Assembly: GCA_007376445.1 (NCBI GenBank)
Contig: VMGF01000001.1
Coordinates: 252,203 to 316,202, forward strand
Length of the DNA stretch: 64,000 nt
Direction of reading: 5' to 3'
DNA from: Parcubacteria group bacterium Gr01-1014_3
GTDB taxonomy: Bacteria > Patescibacteriota > Minisyncoccia > UBA6257 > WO2-44-18
Shown: positions 32,957 to 49,423 of the stretch, one piece after another
Position numbering within the stretch: position 1 is the first letter of the stretch
Layout: each line of letters opens with the position of its first letter
Notes under the pieces: model-generated
What the model saw: the letters and a program-made list of their open reading frames with translations, nothing else
Told to the model about the DNA's origin: nothing
Database searches by the model: none
Program-made: the position numbers and the translations under genes

Positions 32957-33010
32957 TTGACAGGCAATATTAGTGCGTGGGTTGTTTAACAGACCATTTA
33001 GCTTCAACTT

Positions 33011-33048
33011 ACCAAGTGTGAAACATTTTAAAATGTTTCACACTTGGT
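33011..33048. promoter_or_regulatory. 38-bp perfect palindrome ACCAAGTGTGAAACATTTT|AAAATGTTTCACACTTGGT (operator or homodimeric-endonuclease-site-like)
   Basis: Two 19-bp arms with no spacer. The GTGAAACA core recurs five more times around the LAGLIDADG gene. Confidence 0.5.
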
Positions 33049-33135
33049 AATAAAAATGTTTAGCGAAAAAAGTGTCAAACACCGTTCGGAATTTAAGCAC
33101 AAAACTAATGGTTCGTTTGTCGTGAAACAAATTGC

Positions 33136-41140: not shown

Positions 41141-41168
41141 TTGATTTTTATATAAAATATGCTAAGAT
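41141..41168 (+). promoter_or_regulatory. Promoter TTGATT-16-TAAGAT driving the structured leader of ORF 41488
   Basis: Same architecture as the 40381 promoter. Confidence 0.45.
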
Positions 41169-41189
41169 ATGGTCGTTCTTTGAATTTCC

Positions 41190-41487
41190 AATTCACTCCC
41201 TGGATTTGGAGGTGTAGCCACCTCCTTTCACATAAGCTCCCGGACGCGATGCGAGCTATTTTCTTACAGAACTAGGCTTGAGGGCGCAGGTAATAGAAAT
41301 CTATACCCAGCTCGAAAACGACGTTATGTAAGAAAATAGCCGCATCCCGAAGGGTTGTTGCTAAAATGTCAGCTCGCTTCAAAGATGAATCCTAGCAGTA
41401 GACCTCTACAGCTTCAGATTCACTTCTTCGCGATCTGAACATTTTAGCTAACAACGCGCCTGAGATTTATGTGAAAGGAGGTGGCAG
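41190..41487 (+). ncRNA. Large structured 5' leader (candidate riboswitch or cis-regulatory RNA) with SD-sequestering helix
   Basis: H1 pairs 41218..41235 with 41467..41484 over 18 perfect bp, and its 3' strand contains the SD aaggagg. H2 pairs 41255..41268 with 41327..41340 over 14 perfect bp. H3 pairs 41354..41368 with 41440..41455. A competing hairpin ggaggtg-tagc-cacctcc (41208..41224) and an upstream cactccc (41194..41200) are also present. Confidence 0.5.
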
Positions 41488-41949
41488 ATGGTCTTTGAAT
41501 TGCCCGTATTCCTCAGAAAGTCATTTTCGATGATGATCAGAGAGGCAAAATTCGACGACTACAATACCACCATCAACGCGCGTAACTTTCCGCTCCGGAA
41601 TAGAAATTACTGGAAGACTAAGCCTGATATCGTTTCCGTCGAACTTTTGACTTTCGGAAGAAGGGTTGATAACAACGAAATTCTGACCGCAGTCACGGCC
41701 AAGAATCTTAGATTTTCTACGCTGGTGGAGCTGCTGGCGCTTGCTAAGCACTTTCCCGAAGAATCGATCCGGCAGCCGATCGTGGCCATGGGCTCAGCGT
41801 GGCATGAGCGCAGTTATCTCGGCGGACCAGTCCTCCGATATTTCCCGTATCTTTATTCTTATGATCATAATAAGAAACGCGGTTTGGATCTATTTTGGCT
41901 CGAGACGGAATGGGATGAGAATTGGGCGTTTGCCTGTACCCGGTGTTAA
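41488..41949 (+). CDS. Hypothetical protein (153 aa)
   Basis: ATG lies 6 nt after aaggagg. The gene is followed by terminator acccgg-tgttaa-accgggt plus T6. No domain recognised. Confidence 0.5.
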   Translation: MVFELPVFLRKSFSMMIREAKFDDYNTTINARNFPLRNRNYWKTKPDIVSVELLTFGRRVDNNEILTAVTAKNLRFSTLVELLALAKHFPEESIRQPIVAMGSAWHERSYLGGPVLRYFPYLYSYDHNKKRGLDLFWLETEWDENWAFACTRC

Positions 41950-43928: not shown

Positions 43929-43938
43929 GTTCGAGCAT

Positions 43939-44071
43939 CCTCTTTCCGGAAACAGAATAAAACGGCTCCAGCGGCCGTTTTTTCTTCGCCCTCGGCGCGC
44001 CGCTCCGGCTTAAGTCGGAGACCGATTATAGGAGAACAGCCGGCGCGCCTCCGGGATGTTCCGTAAAGAGG
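43939..44071. repeat. GC-rich structured repeat element, copy B
   Basis: See copy A at 17161..17292. It includes the bidirectional terminator acggctccagcggccgt plus T-run, a GGCGCGCC core, and the closing helix cctctttccgg/ccgtaaagagg. Confidence 0.6.
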
Positions 44072-44105
44072 ATACTCTCAACTCGGTGAATTAAATGTGG
44101 TAAAA

Positions 44106-44185: not shown

Positions 44186-44992
44186 GTGAAGGTGGTTGAC
44201 CTTACTAGGGGCGGGGCGCTGACGCGATTTCTTGATGAATTTTCATTCCCTCAGATTCGGGGTTTAATGAAATTCTTGGCCTCCAGCAGTTCCGAAAATA
44301 ACGACAGGGCGTATTTTCAGCTAATGTCTGTGGGCTCCGATGCGCATTTCACTGAATCATTATCTCTGCCAAAAGTGTTCAGATCTTTTAGTCTCAGCTT
44401 TTGTCAGATCAGGCAGGATGGTCAGGTTAAAGAGTACATTACCGAAGAAGACTTTAATAAAGCGGCATCTATTATCAATTCTCTATTTGATACGAAAAAG
44501 ATAGCTTTATCAGAAGAGCCTAAGGGCAAAAGAAAAAATCCGGTTTGCGCGATTATCGCCGCTAAAGGCGGTAAATCCGATATCGTTGTTTGGAATCCTC
44601 TAACCGGAGAAGTAGTGATCTCCAATCATGCCTGGCGTCGATTCTTGGAGAGGTTTTATAAGATGACGCGCAAAGAGGCCAAGGCCAACAAATTTTCCGA
44701 AGATGAGCTCGTGAAACTTCAATCAAGCTTTCTCAAGGCCAAAAAGACCAATCTTTCTGAAAGAGTCGCCTTTGGCAGGTTGTTAAATAATGGCGTTAAG
44801 CCAGCGACCTATCTTTACAATCAGAAAGATAATCTGCGGTTTATCGTTATTGATCAAGGCGAGACAAAGCTACTTGTCACCGCTGAGGATCCCTATCATC
44901 GTGGCAAAAAGCCTATCGAGGCGCCTAGCGAGTGTGATTTACCTGATTACATGCAGCGTTATTTCGAAAAAAAGAAAGAGCTTGACTCATAA
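44186..44992 (+). CDS. Hypothetical protein (268 aa)
   Basis: GTG start following aaggaggg. A strong terminator (acagcccacctgggctgt plus T-run) follows. No domain recognised. Confidence 0.5.
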   Translation: MKVVDLTRGGALTRFLDEFSFPQIRGLMKFLASSSSENNDRAYFQLMSVGSDAHFTESLSLPKVFRSFSLSFCQIRQDGQVKEYITEEDFNKAASIINSLFDTKKIALSEEPKGKRKNPVCAIIAAKGGKSDIVVWNPLTGEVVISNHAWRRFLERFYKMTRKEAKANKFSEDELVKLQSSFLKAKKTNLSERVAFGRLLNNGVKPATYLYNQKDNLRFIVIDQGETKLLVTAEDPYHRGKKPIEAPSECDLPDYMQRYFEKKKELDS

Positions 44993-45047
44993 CAGCCCAC
45001 CTGGGCTGTTTTTTATTTTTCGTCAGGTTAAGTTAGAATATAGCTAT

Positions 45048-45170
45048 GAATCCCACACATAACAAAGAGCGCTGTGGCGATTCGGTAGTGGTCGTAAATA
45101 ATAGAATTACTTATAAAAATAATTAACCAAGAACAAAGAGCGAATACATAAACTCTTTGTTATGTGTGGG
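45048..45170. repeat. 20-bp perfect inverted repeat pair (ATCCCACACATAACAAAGAG ... CTCTTTGTTATGTGTGGGAT) enclosing about 83 bp; MITE-like or long-range leader helix
   Basis: The arms are exact reverse complements. The 3' arm ends at the tyrS ATG. An internal direct repeat aacaaagagcg occurs twice. Confidence 0.55.
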
Positions 45171-46295
45171 ATGAACGATTCATTGCTTACTCGCGGAGTT
45201 GAAGAGGTGATTGTCAAAGACCATCTTGAGGCCGCGCTAAAATCCGGTAAGAAATTACGAGTGAAGTTTGGCATTGATCCGACCGCGCCAGATTTACATT
45301 TGGGGCACACAGTTCCGCTTCGTAAGCTTCGGCAATTTCAGGATGCCGGGCATACGGCGGTTTTAATAATCGGTGACTTTACCGCGATGATCGGAGATCC
45401 TACGGGTCGCTCCGAAGAGCGTATGCCGCTCTCCACAAAAGAGGTGAAGCAAAATATGAAAAAATATCTGAAACAGGCCGGAAAGATTTTGAACGTTAAG
45501 AAGGCGGAGGTCCACTATAATAGTAAATGGCTAAACAAAAGCCTAGACACAATCATAGAAATATCCAGGGTCGGGACAATCCAGCAAGTATTACATCGGG
45601 CAGATTTTAAAAAACGCATAGATGAAGGGAGCGACATCACCTTGCTTGAAGTTATGTACCCGCTGTTCCAGGGTTATGATTCAGTGAAAGTTGAAGCAGA
45701 TGTCGAAATAGGAGGAACCGATCAGAAATTCAATCTTTTGATGGGACGAAGAGTTCAGCGCCATTTCAAGATGCCAGAGCAAGACATGGTTACCGTGCCA
45801 TTATTAGAAGGCACTGATGGCAATCATAAAATGTCCAAGTCCAAGGGAAATTACATTGCTATCGATGAGGCTCCGGATGAAATGTTTGGAAAAATAATGA
45901 GAATACCCGATATTTTGATCGATAAGTATTACAATTTACTTACTGACGCGGATCGCTCAATTCAAGATCCCCTCAAAGCGAAATTAGAGCTCGCGAAAGT
46001 TCTTGTTACCATGTACCATGGCGAAAAATCAGCGACAAAGGCCCAGGAAGAATTTATAAAAATTCATTCGGAGCACGGAAAACCAACCGATAGACCTCGA
46101 TACACAAACTTAGCGGGAAAGTCCGTATTGGACGCGATAAGTGTGGCTGGGATAATTTCAAGTAGAAGCGAAGCTCGTCGTCTGATCGAGCAGGGCGCTG
46201 TCCGTATTAACGACAAGAAAGTTTCAGATCCTAACGAAATAATACCCCCGGGCGCTACCGTGCAAGTCGGCCCCCGCCGTTTTTTTGACACCTAA
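45171..46295 (+). CDS. tyrS: Tyrosyl-tRNA synthetase
   Basis: HIGH-class motif PDLHLGH, the KMSKS motif, and a C-terminal S4 domain. The start is set at ATG 45171 (MNDSLL); the listed ORF starts at 45162. Confidence 0.85.
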   Translation: MNDSLLTRGVEEVIVKDHLEAALKSGKKLRVKFGIDPTAPDLHLGHTVPLRKLRQFQDAGHTAVLIIGDFTAMIGDPTGRSEERMPLSTKEVKQNMKKYLKQAGKILNVKKAEVHYNSKWLNKSLDTIIEISRVGTIQQVLHRADFKKRIDEGSDITLLEVMYPLFQGYDSVKVEADVEIGGTDQKFNLLMGRRVQRHFKMPEQDMVTVPLLEGTDGNHKMSKSKGNYIAIDEAPDEMFGKIMRIPDILIDKYYNLLTDADRSIQDPLKAKLELAKVLVTMYHGEKSATKAQEEFIKIHSEHGKPTDRPRYTNLAGKSVLDAISVAGIISSRSEARRLIEQGAVRINDKKVSDPNEIIPPGATVQVGPRRFFDT

Positions 46296-46987
46296 TGGCC
46301 GCTGAAAAATTCCCAAGACCTGAAAATTCCGAACATCGAGAATCGCTCGAGCATTTTTTCGCGGAAAGTTTAGCGCGCAAAATAAAAGCCGATGATGATG
46401 AGGCGACTCGGCTCGATAAATATCGAAGACAGGAATATGACCCGGAGGAAAAGGCTATGATTGATCAGCAGATCAAGGATGGTGTTTACACCAAAAAAAA
46501 CGCGCCGATTCCCGCGATTCCCGAAGAAAAGATCGAAAAAATCGAACACGCTAATGCTATCCGGGCTAAAATCCTGGAATCTTGGCCCGTTTTTATGAAA
46601 AAGATTGCCGAATGGAATCCGGAGATGGAGCTTGAGCCGACTATCGAAGACCTGGGTATGACGGCCACGGAATTTATAGACCAAGAAGTGGAAAGAGAGC
46701 CGGAGCAATGGACAATTTTCGCGATGGAGCTAGATGATTTGGCTAACCGTGTTCTCGATGACTTCCAGCAAGCGCCATCACCTGAGGGAGTTATGGAAAC
46801 GGCGCAGAAATTGTTCGTGATCAAGAAAGCTTTCAAAATCCTGGAAAAGACGGATTTTTATTCCAAGGAGGAAGGTGAAGATGAGGATGAAGATATTTGG
46901 CGCGAGACGGCCTCCGTACTGGTGAATAACTTTGAAGATACAATGGAAAGAGCCCGCAATCTTTCCGTTTTCGGCCGCGCGAAATAG
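46295..46987 (+). CDS. Acidic hypothetical protein (230 aa)
   Basis: ORF with E/D-rich composition and no motif. Confidence 0.4.
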   Translation: MAAEKFPRPENSEHRESLEHFFAESLARKIKADDDEATRLDKYRRQEYDPEEKAMIDQQIKDGVYTKKNAPIPAIPEEKIEKIEHANAIRAKILESWPVFMKKIAEWNPEMELEPTIEDLGMTATEFIDQEVEREPEQWTIFAMELDDLANRVLDDFQQAPSPEGVMETAQKLFVIKKAFKILEKTDFYSKEEGEDEDEDIWRETASVLVNNFEDTMERARNLSVFGRAK

Positions 46988-47053
46988 CTGTTGTAGTCTC
47001 TAAAAAAGCTTTGTATAATGACTCCGACCTTAAACGGCCGGAGTTTTCTATAT

Positions 47054-49423
47054 ATGTCACCACAGAAGAAAAAAATCACAAGCAAAATAGTGAAAATATT
47101 GAAATTCGGCGGCTCATCCGTTGGTTCGGCTGAGCGGATTAAGAATGTATGTAGAATTATTTATAATTCTACCCTGAGCTTGTCGAAGGGCGCCCGAATC
47201 GCCGTGGTAGTTTCGGCAATGCAAGGAGTAACCGACAAGCTTTTGGCTTTAAAGATCAAAGAAGTAAAAGAAATTCATCAAAAAGCCGCCGCTGAGCTGA
47301 AAGTGCCTTTCCCGGCGTTCATTTTTCAAGAATTAGAAGCGGTGGAGAGCGGCGCCCGGATGCTTGGCGACTTCTCTCCGATGGTGATGGATCGGGTGGC
47401 GAGTTTCGGCGAGCGATTGTCGGCGGCCTTAGTGGCTTCCTATTTACATAAAAAACTACCGGCGGAAGCCTTGGACGCGCGCGAGGTGGTAAAAACCGAT
47501 AACAATTTTCAAAACGCGGCCGTGGATTTCCCGGCGACCAATCGTGCAATTCAGAATTATTTTAAAAAACATCCGGCAGTCCAGGTAATTACAGGATTTA
47601 TCGGTTCCACTAAAGATAATAAAACCACGACCCTCGGCCGCGGTGGTTCAGATTATTCCGCGGCGATCTTCGGCGCGGCGCTTGGCGTGGAAGCGATCGA
47701 GATTTGGACGGACGCCAACGGAATTTTGAGCGCCGATCCGCGAGTTGTCCCGGAGGCTAAGACTTTACCGGCTGTGAGCTATGAAGAAGCTTTTGAGATG
47801 GCGTACTTTGGCGCCAAGGTTATTCATCCGGCCACGATGGTGCCGGCGATTAAAAAAAGTATTCCGATCGTGATTAAAAATACTTTTAATCCGGCGCATT
47901 CCGGTACATTCATTGGAAATCGAAAATTGAAAATTGAAAATTCTGGTAGTCCCGCTAAGAACATTTCTTCACTTGATGGAATGGCTTTAATTACGGTGGG
48001 CGGTACGGATCTCGCTGGCGTGCCTGGTACGGCGGAGCGGGTTTTTCGCGCGGCAGCTAAAGAAAAAGCCAATATAGTCTTAATTGCCCAGGCTTCTTCC
48101 GAGCACACGATCTGCTTCGCGGTAAAGGAAACGGAAGCGGAACGAGCTATTCGCGGCTTGAAAGCGGAATTTGATCTCGAAATTGGCCGGGGGAAGATGT
48201 CGATAGAAGTTCGTAAGGGCCAGAGCGTAGTAGCGGTAGTCGGTGACGGAATGCGAGGCGTTCCAGGAATCTCCGGTAAAATTTTTGATGTATTGGGCAA
48301 AGAAAAAATTAACGTTAATGCTATCGCTCAGGGCGGCTCAGAGAAAAATATTTCATTAGTAGTTCAAGAAAGCGATAAGGCGGTGGCCGTGCAGGCAGTT
48401 CACCGGATTTTGTTTGAAAAATCATTAACACCGGCTATTTTCATTATCGGCGCCGGCAATGTTGGCGGGGAGCTTCTTAGACAGCTTAATGAAAGAATCA
48501 AGAATCAGGAATTAAGAATCAGGATTTGTGGAATTGCCGATTCAAATAAAATGCACCTTGAGGAAGGCGGCATTGATTTAAAAAATTGGAAAAAACCGCT
48601 GGCCGCATCCGCAACCAAAATGAACCTGGATAATTTCTTAAAGGAGGTTCAAAAAAACAGGTCGGATAAGAAAGTTTTAGTGGATTGCACGGCGAGCGAA
48701 CCGATCGCGAAAAGATATTCTGAATTCGTGGCGGCGGGGTGCGATATCGTGACTCCGAATAAAAAGGCCAACGTGCTCCCGATGGCGAAATATACTGCTT
48801 TCCGGAAAGTTTTGGAAAAATATGGAAAAACTTTCCATTATCAGGCCAATGTCGGCGCCGGGTTGCCGGTTTTGGACTCGGTAAAAGGTTTAGTATCGGT
48901 GGGCGATAGCATAAAAAAGATCGAGGGAATTTTCTCTGGTACCTTGAGCTACCTTTTTAATAATTTCGATGGTAAGAAAAAATTCAGCGAACTGGTTTTG
49001 GATGCGAAAGCGAAAGGCTATACCGAGCCGGATCCGAAAGAGGACCTGAGTGGGCAGGATGTTGGTAGGAAACTTCTGATCCTGGCGAGAGCTACTGGCC
49101 TACCGGCTGAACTTTCGGAGGTGGTTTTAGAAAATCTGGCTGAATATAATGATCAGCAGATGGCGAATAAGCTGAAAAAGGCTAAGGCCAAGAAGTGCGT
49201 CCTACGATATGTTGGTTCTGTACAAGGTGGTCGGTTATCCGCTAAATTAAAGGAGATTCCGCTAGATAACCCATTAGCCCATGTAAGCGGAGCCGATAAT
49301 ATAGTCGCAATCTATAGCGGGTACTATAAAAATCAGCCGTTGGTCATAAAAGGGCCTGGCGCCGGAGCAGAAGTGACCGCTGCGGCCGTGTTGAGGGGTA
49401 TTATAAGAGCAATTCAAAATTAA
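47054..49423 (+). CDS. thrA: Bifunctional aspartokinase / homoserine dehydrogenase
   Basis: N-terminal aspartokinase (KILKFGGSSVGS), ACT domains, and a C-terminal homoserine dehydrogenase Rossmann fold (IIGAGNVGGELL). The start is likely ATG 47054; the listed ORF starts at 47018. It contains in-frame (gaaaatt)3 and (aagaatc)n repeats. Confidence 0.8.
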   Translation: MSPQKKKITSKIVKILKFGGSSVGSAERIKNVCRIIYNSTLSLSKGARIAVVVSAMQGVTDKLLALKIKEVKEIHQKAAAELKVPFPAFIFQELEAVESGARMLGDFSPMVMDRVASFGERLSAALVASYLHKKLPAEALDAREVVKTDNNFQNAAVDFPATNRAIQNYFKKHPAVQVITGFIGSTKDNKTTTLGRGGSDYSAAIFGAALGVEAIEIWTDANGILSADPRVVPEAKTLPAVSYEEAFEMAYFGAKVIHPATMVPAIKKSIPIVIKNTFNPAHSGTFIGNRKLKIENSGSPAKNISSLDGMALITVGGTDLAGVPGTAERVFRAAAKEKANIVLIAQASSEHTICFAVKETEAERAIRGLKAEFDLEIGRGKMSIEVRKGQSVVAVVGDGMRGVPGISGKIFDVLGKEKINVNAIAQGGSEKNISLVVQESDKAVAVQAVHRILFEKSLTPAIFIIGAGNVGGELLRQLNERIKNQELRIRICGIADSNKMHLEEGGIDLKNWKKPLAASATKMNLDNFLKEVQKNRSDKKVLVDCTASEPIAKRYSEFVAAGCDIVTPNKKANVLPMAKYTAFRKVLEKYGKTFHYQANVGAGLPVLDSVKGLVSVGDSIKKIEGIFSGTLSYLFNNFDGKKKFSELVLDAKAKGYTEPDPKEDLSGQDVGRKLLILARATGLPAELSEVVLENLAEYNDQQMANKLKKAKAKKCVLRYVGSVQGGRLSAKLKEIPLDNPLAHVSGADNIVAIYSGYYKNQPLVIKGPGAGAEVTAAAVLRGIIRAIQN

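Follow-up and report, generated by a model that had tools for sequence, protein, structure and literature searches.

A probable MITE-type mobile element inserted in the start codon of tyrS in a Parcubacteria genome

The tyrS locus

The window analysed here is a stretch of 64,000 nucleotides from the roughly 400-kb contig VMGF01000001.1 of Parcubacteria group bacterium Gr01-1014_3, and all positions given below refer to it. The gene of interest is tyrS, which encodes a tyrosyl-tRNA synthetase of 374 residues and lies on the forward strand at 45171..46295. Its start codon is the ATG at 45171-45173 (MNDSLLTRGVEE...), in agreement with the N-termini of related proteins. The public annotation uses a second, in-frame ATG at 45162..45164, giving a protein of 377 residues (MCGMNDS...), and thus starts TyrS three codons too early (MCG...).

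Upstream of tyrS is an ORF of 268 residues, at whose end there is a hairpin followed by a run of T, resembling an intrinsic terminator (44991..45020, forward strand). This feature bounds the tyrS promoter region on the left. It is followed by TAGAAT at 45034..45039, also on the forward strand, which is predicted from its sequence, and from the presence of the same box in relatives, to be the native tyrS -10 box of a leaderless-type promoter. The box is 6 nt upstream of what was originally the tyrS start codon. A sigma-70 scan found no full -35/-10 promoter on the forward strand, and the -10 boxes proposed here have no -35. The neighbouring ORFs (268, 230 and 153 residues) gave no Pfam families.

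Anatomy of the repeat

Between the native -10 box and the tyrS coding sequence there is a perfect inverted repeat of 20 nt, ATCCCACACATAACAAAGAG at 45050-45069 and CTCTTTGTTATGTGTGGGAT at 45153-45172, with 83 nt between the arms. A preliminary description of this DNA reported the repeat, and an interior of about 83 bp with a twofold direct repeat, both of which are real; the direct repeat is AACAAAGAGCG, at 45061-45071 and 45132-45142. The coordinates then given for the arms were 2 nt too far to the left, and the right arm, said to stop 1 nt short of the tyrS ATG, in fact overlaps its first two bases. The same arm also holds the second ATG, at 45162. The 20-mer occurs in the window at these two places only, and 100 dinucleotide shuffles gave no match to it even with up to three mismatches allowed.

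One base pair of the 20-bp helix, the outermost A-T, derives from a target-site duplication, and so the element's own repeat is 19 bp. The left terminal repeat is TCCCACACATAACAAAGAG (45051..45069) and the right one is CTCTTTGTTATGTGTGGGA (45153..45171), the last A of which is the A of the tyrS ATG. The element proper, a member of the family described below, is 121 bp long, TCCCACAC...GTGTGGGA, at 45051..45171 on the forward strand, where a covariance model scores 140 bits, versus 62 bits on the reverse strand. The right terminal repeat is the most conserved segment in the family. To the left of the element is ATGAA at 45046..45050, which is the original tyrS start codon together with the left copy of the duplication (TGAA, 45047-45050); to the right is the second TGAA, at 45172..45175. 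The corresponding in-silico empty allele reads TAGAATATAGCTATGAACGATTC.

The interior is AT-rich and the element contains no transposase gene. Its sole ORF is a stub of 26 codons (MNPTHNKERCGDSVVVVNNRITYKNN*, 45046..45126), which is opened by the orphaned start codon, runs through the left arm and ends at the TAA at 45124-45126. The old ATG is 125 nt from the tyrS ATG and out of frame with it. Two -10-like hexamers are present, TAGAAT at 45102 and TAAACT at 45149..45154, the latter lying across the junction of the interior and the right arm. TAAACT is a predicted promoter element, 7 nt before the in-frame ATG at 45162, which is the geometry of the leaderless promoters of this genome; it has neither a -35 nor a TGn extension. 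No terminator-like site was found between the element and tyrS.

Two further pairings are possible within the element. TGTGGC at 45073..45078 (TGTGGG in most copies) can pair locally with CCCACA in the left arm, giving an alternative 5' hairpin, and the second copy of the direct repeat (45132..45142), which is equivalent to the left arm's inner half, can pair with the inner half of the right arm, giving an alternative 3' hairpin of 9 bp. Across the family, 88% of cells are paired in the 5' hairpin and 99% in the 3' hairpin, where 12 of 12 one-sided changes are to G-U on the sense strand.

Copies in other genomes

Sixteen further complete copies were found, in other CPR genomes and in metagenomes, with at least six in one genome. 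In three CPR assemblies (6, 4 and 2 copies), and also in groundwater and other metagenome contigs, the 19-mer arm forms inverted pairs with a spacing of 72-133 nt. One Logan contig, L001, begins inside the element. The 17 copies come from at least 7 independent assemblies. The copy at tyrS and its orthologous copy in L026 count as one insertion event, leaving 16 independent sites. The covariance model was built from 13 copies and recovers every copy in the family. The preliminary description proposed a test for additional copies in the same genome; over the window this test gave a single copy, as neither the model nor a pattern search allowing three mismatches found another. Viral contigs gave no match to the element, and a phage origin was rejected on this ground. 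The 19-mer was also found in Cupriavidus, in a Solirubrobacterales MAG and in an unrelated group of metagenome contigs, but as single arms with no partner, and these matches are therefore treated as chance or unrelated.

The members of the family are 91-156 bp long. In 14 of the 17 copies, A+TGRA on the left is matched by an identical TGRA on the right (10 TGAA and 4 TGGA, none discordant), while three copies (L013a, L009 and L031) lack the left duplication. Identical arms are found in hosts whose common proteins have 42-56% identity, and such arms, present across distant genomes, may serve as portable homology for recombination. In a variant subfamily (L013b) there are three compensating changes affecting both arms, which do not discriminate, since they are expected of terminal repeats and RNA helices alike. 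Within the main family no double changes were seen in the terminal helix, and one-sided changes in the arms have no clear strand bias. Long-form copies contain a nested 12-bp mini-hairpin of a variant arm (TCCCTCACATAA...TTATGTAAGGGA).

Filled and empty sites

The preliminary description proposed a comparison of the tyrS upstream region in relatives, and this proved informative. In six relatives, with TyrS 57-74% identical and the neighbourhood tig-clpP-x-tyrS kept, there is no repeat: the region consists of a -10 box (TAnnnT, being GTTAGAAT or TAAAAT), then 6-8 nt, then ATG. The element thus occupies the tyrS site in the window and in L026 but not in the six relatives. Similarly, the related genomes L013 and L020 have three orthologous genes that carry the element in only one of the two; the unoccupied sites consist of a -10 box followed by ATGAAG, GTGAAA or ATGAAA. 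Judged by sequence comparison, these four pairs of filled and empty orthologous sites show that the element moves. By the same kind of evidence, insertion is shown to have duplicated TGAA (bases 2-5 of the gene), leaving the old promoter and ATGAA to the left of the element, and to have rebuilt the tyrS ATG on the right from the terminal A of the element and the duplicated TG.

We therefore propose, with a probability of roughly 0.8, that the repeat represents a non-autonomous, MITE-type mobile element of 121 bp, whose perfect terminal inverted repeats are 19 bp long and which inserted in the start codon of a leaderless tyrS gene. A MITE-like element was one of the two possibilities raised in the preliminary description, and the terminal repeats, the flanking duplications, the many copies in other CPR genomes and the empty orthologous sites all bear it out. 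Insertion would have been carried out by a DDE-type transposase acting in trans and making a 4-bp staggered cut. The enzyme and its cutting pattern are inferred, since the analysis found neither a transposase nor a full-length parent with these ends: there are no distant pairs of arms in the examined loci that would mark a parent element, and no transposase-like ORF is repeated among them, the sole paralog-like matches being syntenic orthologs.

An element of this kind might also be mobile in another way. It could be a REP/REPIN-like hairpin moved as single-stranded DNA by an enzyme of the Y1 RAYT/IS200 type, or the substrate of a site-specific recombinase with a TGRA crossover core. Either enzyme would give orientation-specific insertion without selection, as needed for the fixed orientation of all 17 copies (see below), and a common core at both junctions would mimic a target duplication. 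The strand-specific variation in the internal repeat (G-T/G-U only), the nested mini-hairpin of the long forms and the failure to find a DDE transposase also fit. Against this, elements of the REP and IS200/IS605 types insert without a duplication and lack long terminal inverted repeats; the 4 bp on the two sides agree in all 14 cases but differ between sites (TGAA or TGGA), as a staggered cut predicts; and in an unsystematic look no RAYT or recombinase gene was noticed beside the copies. We consider such a mechanism unlikely.

Position and orientation of the insertions

All 17 copies adjoin the ATG of a long gene, in that the terminal A of the element together with the following TG begins a long ORF. 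In 13 of these proteins a Pfam domain begins within the first residues. The element lies before at least 15 unrelated genes: besides tyrS they include genes for LigA, ribosomal proteins S21 (rpsU) and L25, glycosyltransferases, DoxX, VanY and an HI0933-like protein, among others. The interior has the same orientation relative to the downstream gene in all 17 copies (two-sided P = 1.5e-5). TAnnnT is found 6-8 nt before the left ATG in 12 of the 14 copies that have the duplication, whereas of the window's 62 genes 13 have it (P = 4e-7). Were insertion tolerated solely at start codons and at intergenic ATGRA sites, the chance that all 17 would lie at starts is 3.5e-5; these figures, being calculated per copy, overstate independence, because the copies are related by descent.

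The restriction to the start codons of leaderless genes and the fixed orientation would reflect targeting, orientation-dependent survival, or both. Either insertion is directed to transcription and translation starts, or only such insertions survive, and both options bear on the expression of leaderless genes and on a genome's tolerance of a 120-bp hairpin between promoter and start codon. The start-codon pattern could have a purely selective origin. We tentatively raise the more ambitious idea, which we regard as possible but doubtful, that active targeting directs the element, or the enzyme responsible for moving it, to the transcription/translation start of leaderless genes, and that the element has evolved as a self-neutralising cassette. 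Targeting might involve, for example, recognition of the RNA-polymerase open complex or of the -10/ATG geometry, while the cassette would comprise the rebuilt ATG, the element's own leaderless promoter with its in-frame start, and alternative hairpins that keep the start accessible.

The orientation also bears on a third possibility, namely that the arms are recombination sites and that flipping of the 83-bp interior switches tyrS on and off. Perfect inverted repeats around a short AT-rich segment containing -10-like hexamers (TAGAAT at 45102, TAAACT at 45149) have the look of such a switch, and inversion has been reported for Correia elements (review PMC10969869). None of the 17 copies, which come from at least 7 independent assemblies, has the interior the other way round, and this led us to reject this candidate; moreover the flanking duplications and empty sites point to transposition, and no invertase gene was noticed nearby. 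The invertible switch is the least credible of the explanations considered here.

Expression of tyrS

In a transcript reading through from the native promoter, the arms are predicted to form a helix of 20-24 bp (MFE -40 kcal/mol, z = -5.1) in which both ATGs are buried. The suggestion in the preliminary description that the helix would occlude the initiation region if transcribed is thus supported by the predicted fold. Since the helix would bury the tyrS start, an effect on expression is likely, as a by-product of insertion.

Expression could be maintained by either of two routes, or by both. In the first, TAAACT at the right end of the element would act as a -10 box and give a new leaderless mRNA starting from the ATG at 45162, encoding MCG-TyrS. 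Of the 17 copies, 11 have a TAnnnT box at a distance of 7 nt upstream of the in-arm ATG, and 6 lack it. In the second, the old promoter would fire and ribosomes would begin at the 5'-terminal AUG of the 26-codon upstream ORF; in translating it they would melt the 20-bp helix, after which pairing of the right arm with the internal repeat would keep the tyrS AUG open. The upstream ORF varies in length between copies (12-37 codons), and the frame in which it passes through the conserved GTCGTAA motif, its stop position and the sequence after the arm also vary. It is therefore best seen as a by-product, with no conserved peptide; a conserved leader peptide is ruled out by the variation in length, frame and stop. 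The interior contains 21 ATGs across the copies, compared to 31.5 expected, a weak difference that is confounded by shared descent.

The buried start codon could instead indicate a dedicated riboregulator of tyrS, in which the helix hides the start and opens with tyrosine, tRNA-Tyr or TyrS, as an analogue of a T-box or of the E. coli thrS operator. This would also account for the fact that, despite divergence of the interior, the arms in L026 have stayed complementary, one of their 40 positions having changed, and an alternative pairing is available. As the preliminary description concluded, the repeat is not a T-box: Rfam searches of the window at the gathering score, and of 44900-45350 at E<=10, matched neither this nor any other known RNA family. 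The tyrS T-box leader of Firmicutes is likewise a structured RNA before tyrS, but there is here no specifier, antiterminator or terminator, and the interior has no conserved feature specific for tyrosine or tRNA. The other suggestion of the preliminary description, a translational-control helix specific for tyrS, is not supported, since six tyrS relatives have no leader at all, and at least 15 unrelated genes carry the same element in front, among them ligA, rpsU, the L25 gene and those for glycosyltransferases, DoxX, VanY and the HI0933-like protein. Given that the element occupies the same start-codon position, in the same orientation, in unrelated genes across CPR genomes, it is not a regulator of tyrS, and we regard a dedicated riboregulator as very improbable. 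The tyrS hairpin is better understood as mobile DNA.

Comparison with known systems

Correia elements have a 26-bp terminal repeat and duplicate TA at the target. The tyrS element resembles these Neisseria elements (CREE/NEMIS; PMC2649163, review PMC10969869) in its size (about 100-155 bp for Correia elements), its long terminal inverted repeats and target-site duplication, the position of many copies just upstream of genes, and the existence of short and long forms. It differs in that sequence and host are unrelated, the Correia terminal repeat being absent (the arms here are TCCCACACATAACAAAGAG) and the duplication being 4 bp of TGRA, and in that all copies lie inside a start codon, which they rebuild, in fixed orientation. 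Correia elements form a hairpin when co-transcribed, and promoters can arise from their ends (PMC2649163; review PMC10969869). By analogy, the tyrS element probably works in a similar way.

Like bacterial MITEs in general (review PMC10969869; Delihas, PMC2229807), the element is small and non-coding, with terminal inverted repeats, a target duplication, multiple dispersed copies in other hosts and filled/empty polymorphism, although no parent insertion sequence was found for it. The text of the MITE review (PMC10969869) never mentions 'start codon', and in the literature searched there is no described equivalent of an element that inserts exclusively in the start codons of leaderless genes and regenerates the ATG. 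The family therefore appears to be an undescribed one, in a group, the CPR/Patescibacteria, where little mobile DNA has been characterised so far. Such elements mislead gene callers and motif hunters.

REP/REPIN sequences, mobilised by RAYT, are also repeated hairpin-forming units with nested palindromes and strong conservation of the palindrome. REPINs are extragenic, as a rule on the 3' side of a gene; they carry a GTAG motif and lack a target duplication, whereas the present family shows none of these features. Rickettsia palindromic elements (RPE) are again palindromic and mobile, and land inside gene boundaries without destroying genes, but they are in frame and translated with the host protein, while here the frame of the old ATG stops within the element and the protein restarts at its right end.

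The yeast retrotransposon Ty3 integrates at the transcription start sites of RNA polymerase III, to which it is targeted via TFIIIB. The similarity lies in an insertion position within a few bases of a transcription start; Ty3 is, of course, a eukaryotic retrotransposon, and targeting through the transcription machinery is only hypothesised for the present element. Were this correct, the element would be a bacterial transposon specific for transcription start sites, a counterpart of Ty3, and would offer a natural means of probing leaderless initiation in CPR bacteria.

The tyrS region in L026

Between the window and the orthologous copy in L026, 49 of 50 nt agree in the native promoter and ATGAA, compared with an identity of only about 65-72% in the coding DNA of tyrS. 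In both genomes the tyrS region is a mosaic.

The inverted repeat at the tyrS start

Before tyrS the window has an inverted repeat with perfect 20-nt arms: ATCCCACACATAACAAAGAG at 45050-45069 and, after 83 nt, its reverse complement at 45153-45172. This agrees with the preliminary description except that the coordinates given there were 2 nt too low; the internal direct repeat noted there (AACAAAGAGCG) is also present, at 45061-45071 and 45132-45142. The 20-mer has no third place in the window, even at 3 mismatches, and shuffled sequences gave no matches to it. The start of tyrS is ATG 45171 (MNDSLLTRGVEE...), in agreement with all relatives, and comparison with these places the ancestral TyrS start at the same position. 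The 3' arm had been described as ending 1 nt before this ATG, when it in fact shares the first two bases of the codon. It also holds a second ATG at 45162, in frame with tyrS, which is where the public annotation of TyrS (P0001, MCGMNDS..., 377 aa) begins, and gene callers are liable to the same 3-codon over-extension at genes behind any copy of the element described below.

A T-box, already doubted from the sequence, can be rejected: searched at gathering score across the whole window and at E<=10 near the site, Rfam gave no family, T-box included.

Probable insertion into a leaderless-type start codon

Six relatives sharing the tig-clpP-x-tyrS neighbourhood were reached via their TyrS proteins, allowing the comparison of upstream regions that had been proposed earlier. 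In all six, a -10-like box comes after the terminator of the upstream gene, with the tyrS ATG 6-8 nt beyond it (for example GTTAGAAT-tatacaga-ATGGAC, TAAAAT-atctagt-ATG and TAAAAT-taagcca-ATG), and both a Shine-Dalgarno sequence and an inverted repeat before tyrS are absent from all six. In leaderless genes, transcription begins about 7 nt past the -10 box. The spacing in the relatives is that expected for a leaderless gene, all promoter and leaderless assignments here being read from sequence. Of the 62 window genes, 13 show the same geometry, tig among them (TATAAT-atatcgaa-ATG).

In the window, GTTAGAAT-atagct-ATGAA stands at 45033-45050, directly left of the left arm, and ATGAA is repeated at 45171-45175. 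The arrangement is explained most simply if a 121-bp element (45051-45171, TCCCAC...GTGGGA) entered the tyrS start codon, duplicating TGAA. The tyrS ATG would have been rebuilt from the terminal A of the element and the duplicated TG, and the 20th base pair of the helix as first described is the pairing of the two duplication copies.

Distribution and mobility

The 19-nt arm was queried exactly against a species-representative genome collection and the JGI metagenomes, a search that decayed copies may escape. Inverted arm pairs 72-133 nt apart were found in three assemblies of the candidate phyla radiation (CPR) recorded as 'uncultured Candidatus Saccharibacteria', namely CAYHBX01 (6 copies), CAZJFE01 (4 copies, one with variant arms) and CAZWVU01 (2 copies), while groundwater and other metagenome contigs hold four complete copies and one solo arm. 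Single-arm matches (Cupriavidus, a Solirubrobacterales MAG and an unrelated contig set) occur in about the number expected by chance for a 19-mer and were set aside. A covariance model built on 13 copies recovers all copies, each with its higher score on the strand that carries the neighbouring gene, and reveals no further or decayed copy over the window and fetched loci (187 kb). The arms are identical between the window and one host, though two shared proteins are only 42-56% identical, so that the element either is far better conserved than its hosts or moves between them.

Two related genomes (loci L013 and L020; orthologs 72-87% identical) overlap in three genes. At gene A the element is present in L020 (TAAAAT-ctggga-ATGAA / element / TGAAG) and absent from L013 (empty site TAAGAT-ggggaa-ATGAAG). 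Gene B (VanY-like) shows the reverse, filled in L013 and empty in L020 (TATAAT-taaaatt-GTGAAA), and so does gene C (HI0933-like), where the element in L013 is a variant and the empty site in L020 reads TACTTT-cagggg-ATGAAA. Counting tyrS, there are four filled/empty pairs, and at every empty site a start codon follows a -10 box. Given the arms, the TGRA duplications (TGAA or TGGA), the dispersed copies and the filled/empty pairs, the element therefore has the defining features of a MITE, as had been suspected, with the exceptions of an autonomous parent and of copy number in the source genome: no parent element was found, nor any evidence of a transposase on the fetched loci, and the source MAG ('Parcubacteria group bacterium Gr01-1014_3') has one copy within the 64-kb window.

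Several copies have unusual structures. Long-form copies (151-156 bp; L011 4535-4686, L018 with L008, and L026) have, nested at one shared interior position, a hairpin of about 30 nt (TCCCTCACATAA-loop-TTATGTAAGGGA) that is a miniature of the variant arm of L013b (one of two copies at L013); this suggests that the palindrome itself is a recognised unit, with short and long forms as in Correia elements. The metagenome contig L022 (left arm at rc 166) has a solo left arm before ruvC, ATGAA/TCCCACACATAACAAAGAG/caaatgagATGAAAATC, with an 11-codon upstream ORF whose TGA overlaps the ruvC ATG (ATGA) in a translational-coupling arrangement; it probably arose from a full copy by deletion. In L031, a 1055-bp metagenome contig with a copy at 161-287 on the reverse strand, the flanks TTCA (left) and TGAA (right) form an inverted, not direct, duplication, and ORFs begin at both element ends, pointing outward; this reflects either inversion involving two copies or chimeric assembly, short metagenome contigs being open to chimerism at the repeat. 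L001, a Logan contig of SRR8863434 from the same strain, matches the window from 45099 onward, this independent assembly breaking within the AT-rich interior of the element, which polymorphism or a second near-identical copy in the sample would explain.

The tyrS region of L026, a Hainich groundwater contig, is a mosaic with respect to window 44985-47120. Promoter and element DNA are 87-98% identical and the downstream 230-aa ORF 74% (protein), whereas TyrS is only 57% identical, the L026 TyrS being closest to another sub-lineage (P0018/P0069, 66%). This points either to replacement of the tyrS coding part in one lineage or to recent exchange of the promoter-element block; one mosaic junction is the right end of the element.

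Position and orientation of the copies

The copies are uniform in position: the right end reads ...GTGTGGGA/TG in all 17 complete copies, and the resulting ATG opens a long ORF. The downstream genes are unrelated, encoding TyrS (twice, same site), NAD-dependent DNA ligase, ribosomal proteins S21 and L25, two kinds of glycosyltransferase, DoxX, VanY, a cupredoxin, an RNase-H-like protein, a cytidylyltransferase, an HI0933-like flavoprotein and others, with Pfam domains that start within the first few residues. These unrelated genes and the empty tyrS sites of the relatives rule against an operator specific to tyrS, and hence against the tyrS-specific translational control that had been put forward as the alternative to a MITE.

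Fourteen of the 17 copies have A+TGAA or A+TGGA on the left and the identical TGAA or TGGA on the right (10 and 4, none discordant). TAnnnT lies 6-8 nt before the left ATG in 12 of these 14, as against 13 of 62 window genes (binomial P = 4e-7). The interior runs 5' CGYTGTGGG ... GTCGT ... AT-rich ... AACAAAGAGCGAAT ... TAAA 3' in 17/17 copies (two-sided P = 1.5e-5), and this single orientation excludes an invertible switch. The window has 332 ATGRA sites, 29 at gene starts and 24 fully intergenic. For an ATGRA-specific element surviving only at start and intergenic sites, finding all 17 copies at starts has P = 3.5e-5, and with TGRA specificity the probability is far smaller still, although all these per-copy statistics overstate independence somewhat, the window and L026 copies being one event and the independent sites numbering 16.

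Internal pairings and expression of tyrS

Beyond the 19-bp ends, the copies conserve two local pairings, one between left-arm CCCACA and the TGTGGG shortly after it (88% of cells paired), the other between the internal repeat AACAAAGAG and the inner half of the right arm, CTCTTTGTT (99%). The internal repeat varies at 7 of 9 positions. Each of the 12 changes produces G-U on the sense strand, none is a transversion, and both G positions are unchanged. This suggests selection on single-stranded sense RNA or DNA, for which the evidence is moderate, given the A-rich strand and the inheritance of some changes from a common ancestor. In L013b three arm positions are changed on both sides and the internal repeat follows, but this would equally be expected of terminal repeats bound by one transposase and therefore does not discriminate.

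Read-through RNA is predicted to fold into a 20-24-bp helix (-40.1 kcal/mol, z = -5.1) burying both ATGs, in line with the earlier proposal that a transcribed helix would cover the initiation region. When the left arm is withheld, a 9-bp 3' hairpin is predicted, leaving AUGUGUGGGAUG largely free.

We infer two routes by which tyrS could be expressed. In the first, TAAACT at the interior/right-arm junction (45149-45154), followed after 7 nt by the in-frame ATG 45162, would provide the leaderless promoter geometry of this genome. TAnnnT occurs at this place in 11 of 17 copies, with T-A-A conserved beside variable neighbours. Counting against this route, the box has no -35 or TGn and is missing from six copies. 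A reversed element would have no junction box, which would explain the fixed orientation. In the second route, the old promoter would still be active and the transcript would start at the orphaned AUG, the first codon of a 26-codon ORF that runs across the left arm. A ribosome on this ORF would hold the long helix open, and the internal repeat would then capture the right arm. The old promoter and ATGAA are identical at 49/50 nt between the window and the orthologous L026 copy, as against only about 65-72% for tyrS coding DNA directly past ATGAAC, which supports this second route. So does the upstream ORF stop lying 10 nt past the gene's ATG or overlapping it (AUGA), as seen in L006 (the shortest copy) and the L022 solo arm, a stop near or overlapping a downstream AUG being a classic coupling arrangement. 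At least one route is intact in every copy, the numbers being too small for statistics, and a mixture of the two is most likely.

Comparison with known elements

Among known elements, the working of this one is probably most like that of the Correia elements of Neisseria, which are 100-155 bp long with long terminal repeats and short and long forms; they lie immediately before genes, are transcribed together with them as hairpins and make promoters at their ends (PMC2649163; PMC10969869). Differences in its ends, hosts and duplication (TGRA, as against TA in Correia) place it outside that family. Rickettsia palindromic elements are unlike it in being translated in frame, and REP/REPIN in lacking a duplication and lying 3' of genes. 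The element encodes no conserved leader peptide, and the viral collection gives no sign of a phage origin. Neither start-codon insertion nor this family turned up in literature searches, and a 2024 review of prokaryotic MITEs makes no mention of start codons (PMC10969869). MITEs are a known kind of element; exclusive residence in leaderless start codons, with the ATG regenerated and the orientation fixed, is apparently undescribed.

Other inverted repeats in the window

A second, unrelated insertion of about 270-300 nt, very strongly structured, lies at 41168-41500 before the ORF at 41488 (predicted RNA fold -140 kcal/mol, z = -11). About 270 nt with two further long helices are enclosed by a perfect 19-bp inverted repeat (41217-41235 / 41467-41485), whose right arm includes a perfect Shine-Dalgarno sequence (AAAGGAGGTG) and stops 2 nt short of ATG 41488. 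The first 17 nt of the ORF (ATGGTCTTTGAATTGCC) are repeated at 41170-41190, right behind -10-like boxes. The 153-aa ORF has no Pfam match, and the insertion has no Rfam match and no copy among the fetched loci. Elsewhere, a perfect 42-nt palindrome (TTACCAAGTGTGAAACATTTT/AAAATGTTTCACACTTGGTAA) is found at 33009-33050, and a 19-nt inverted repeat, 89% complementary, lies at 43933-43951 / 44059-44077, between clpP and a 268-aa ORF.
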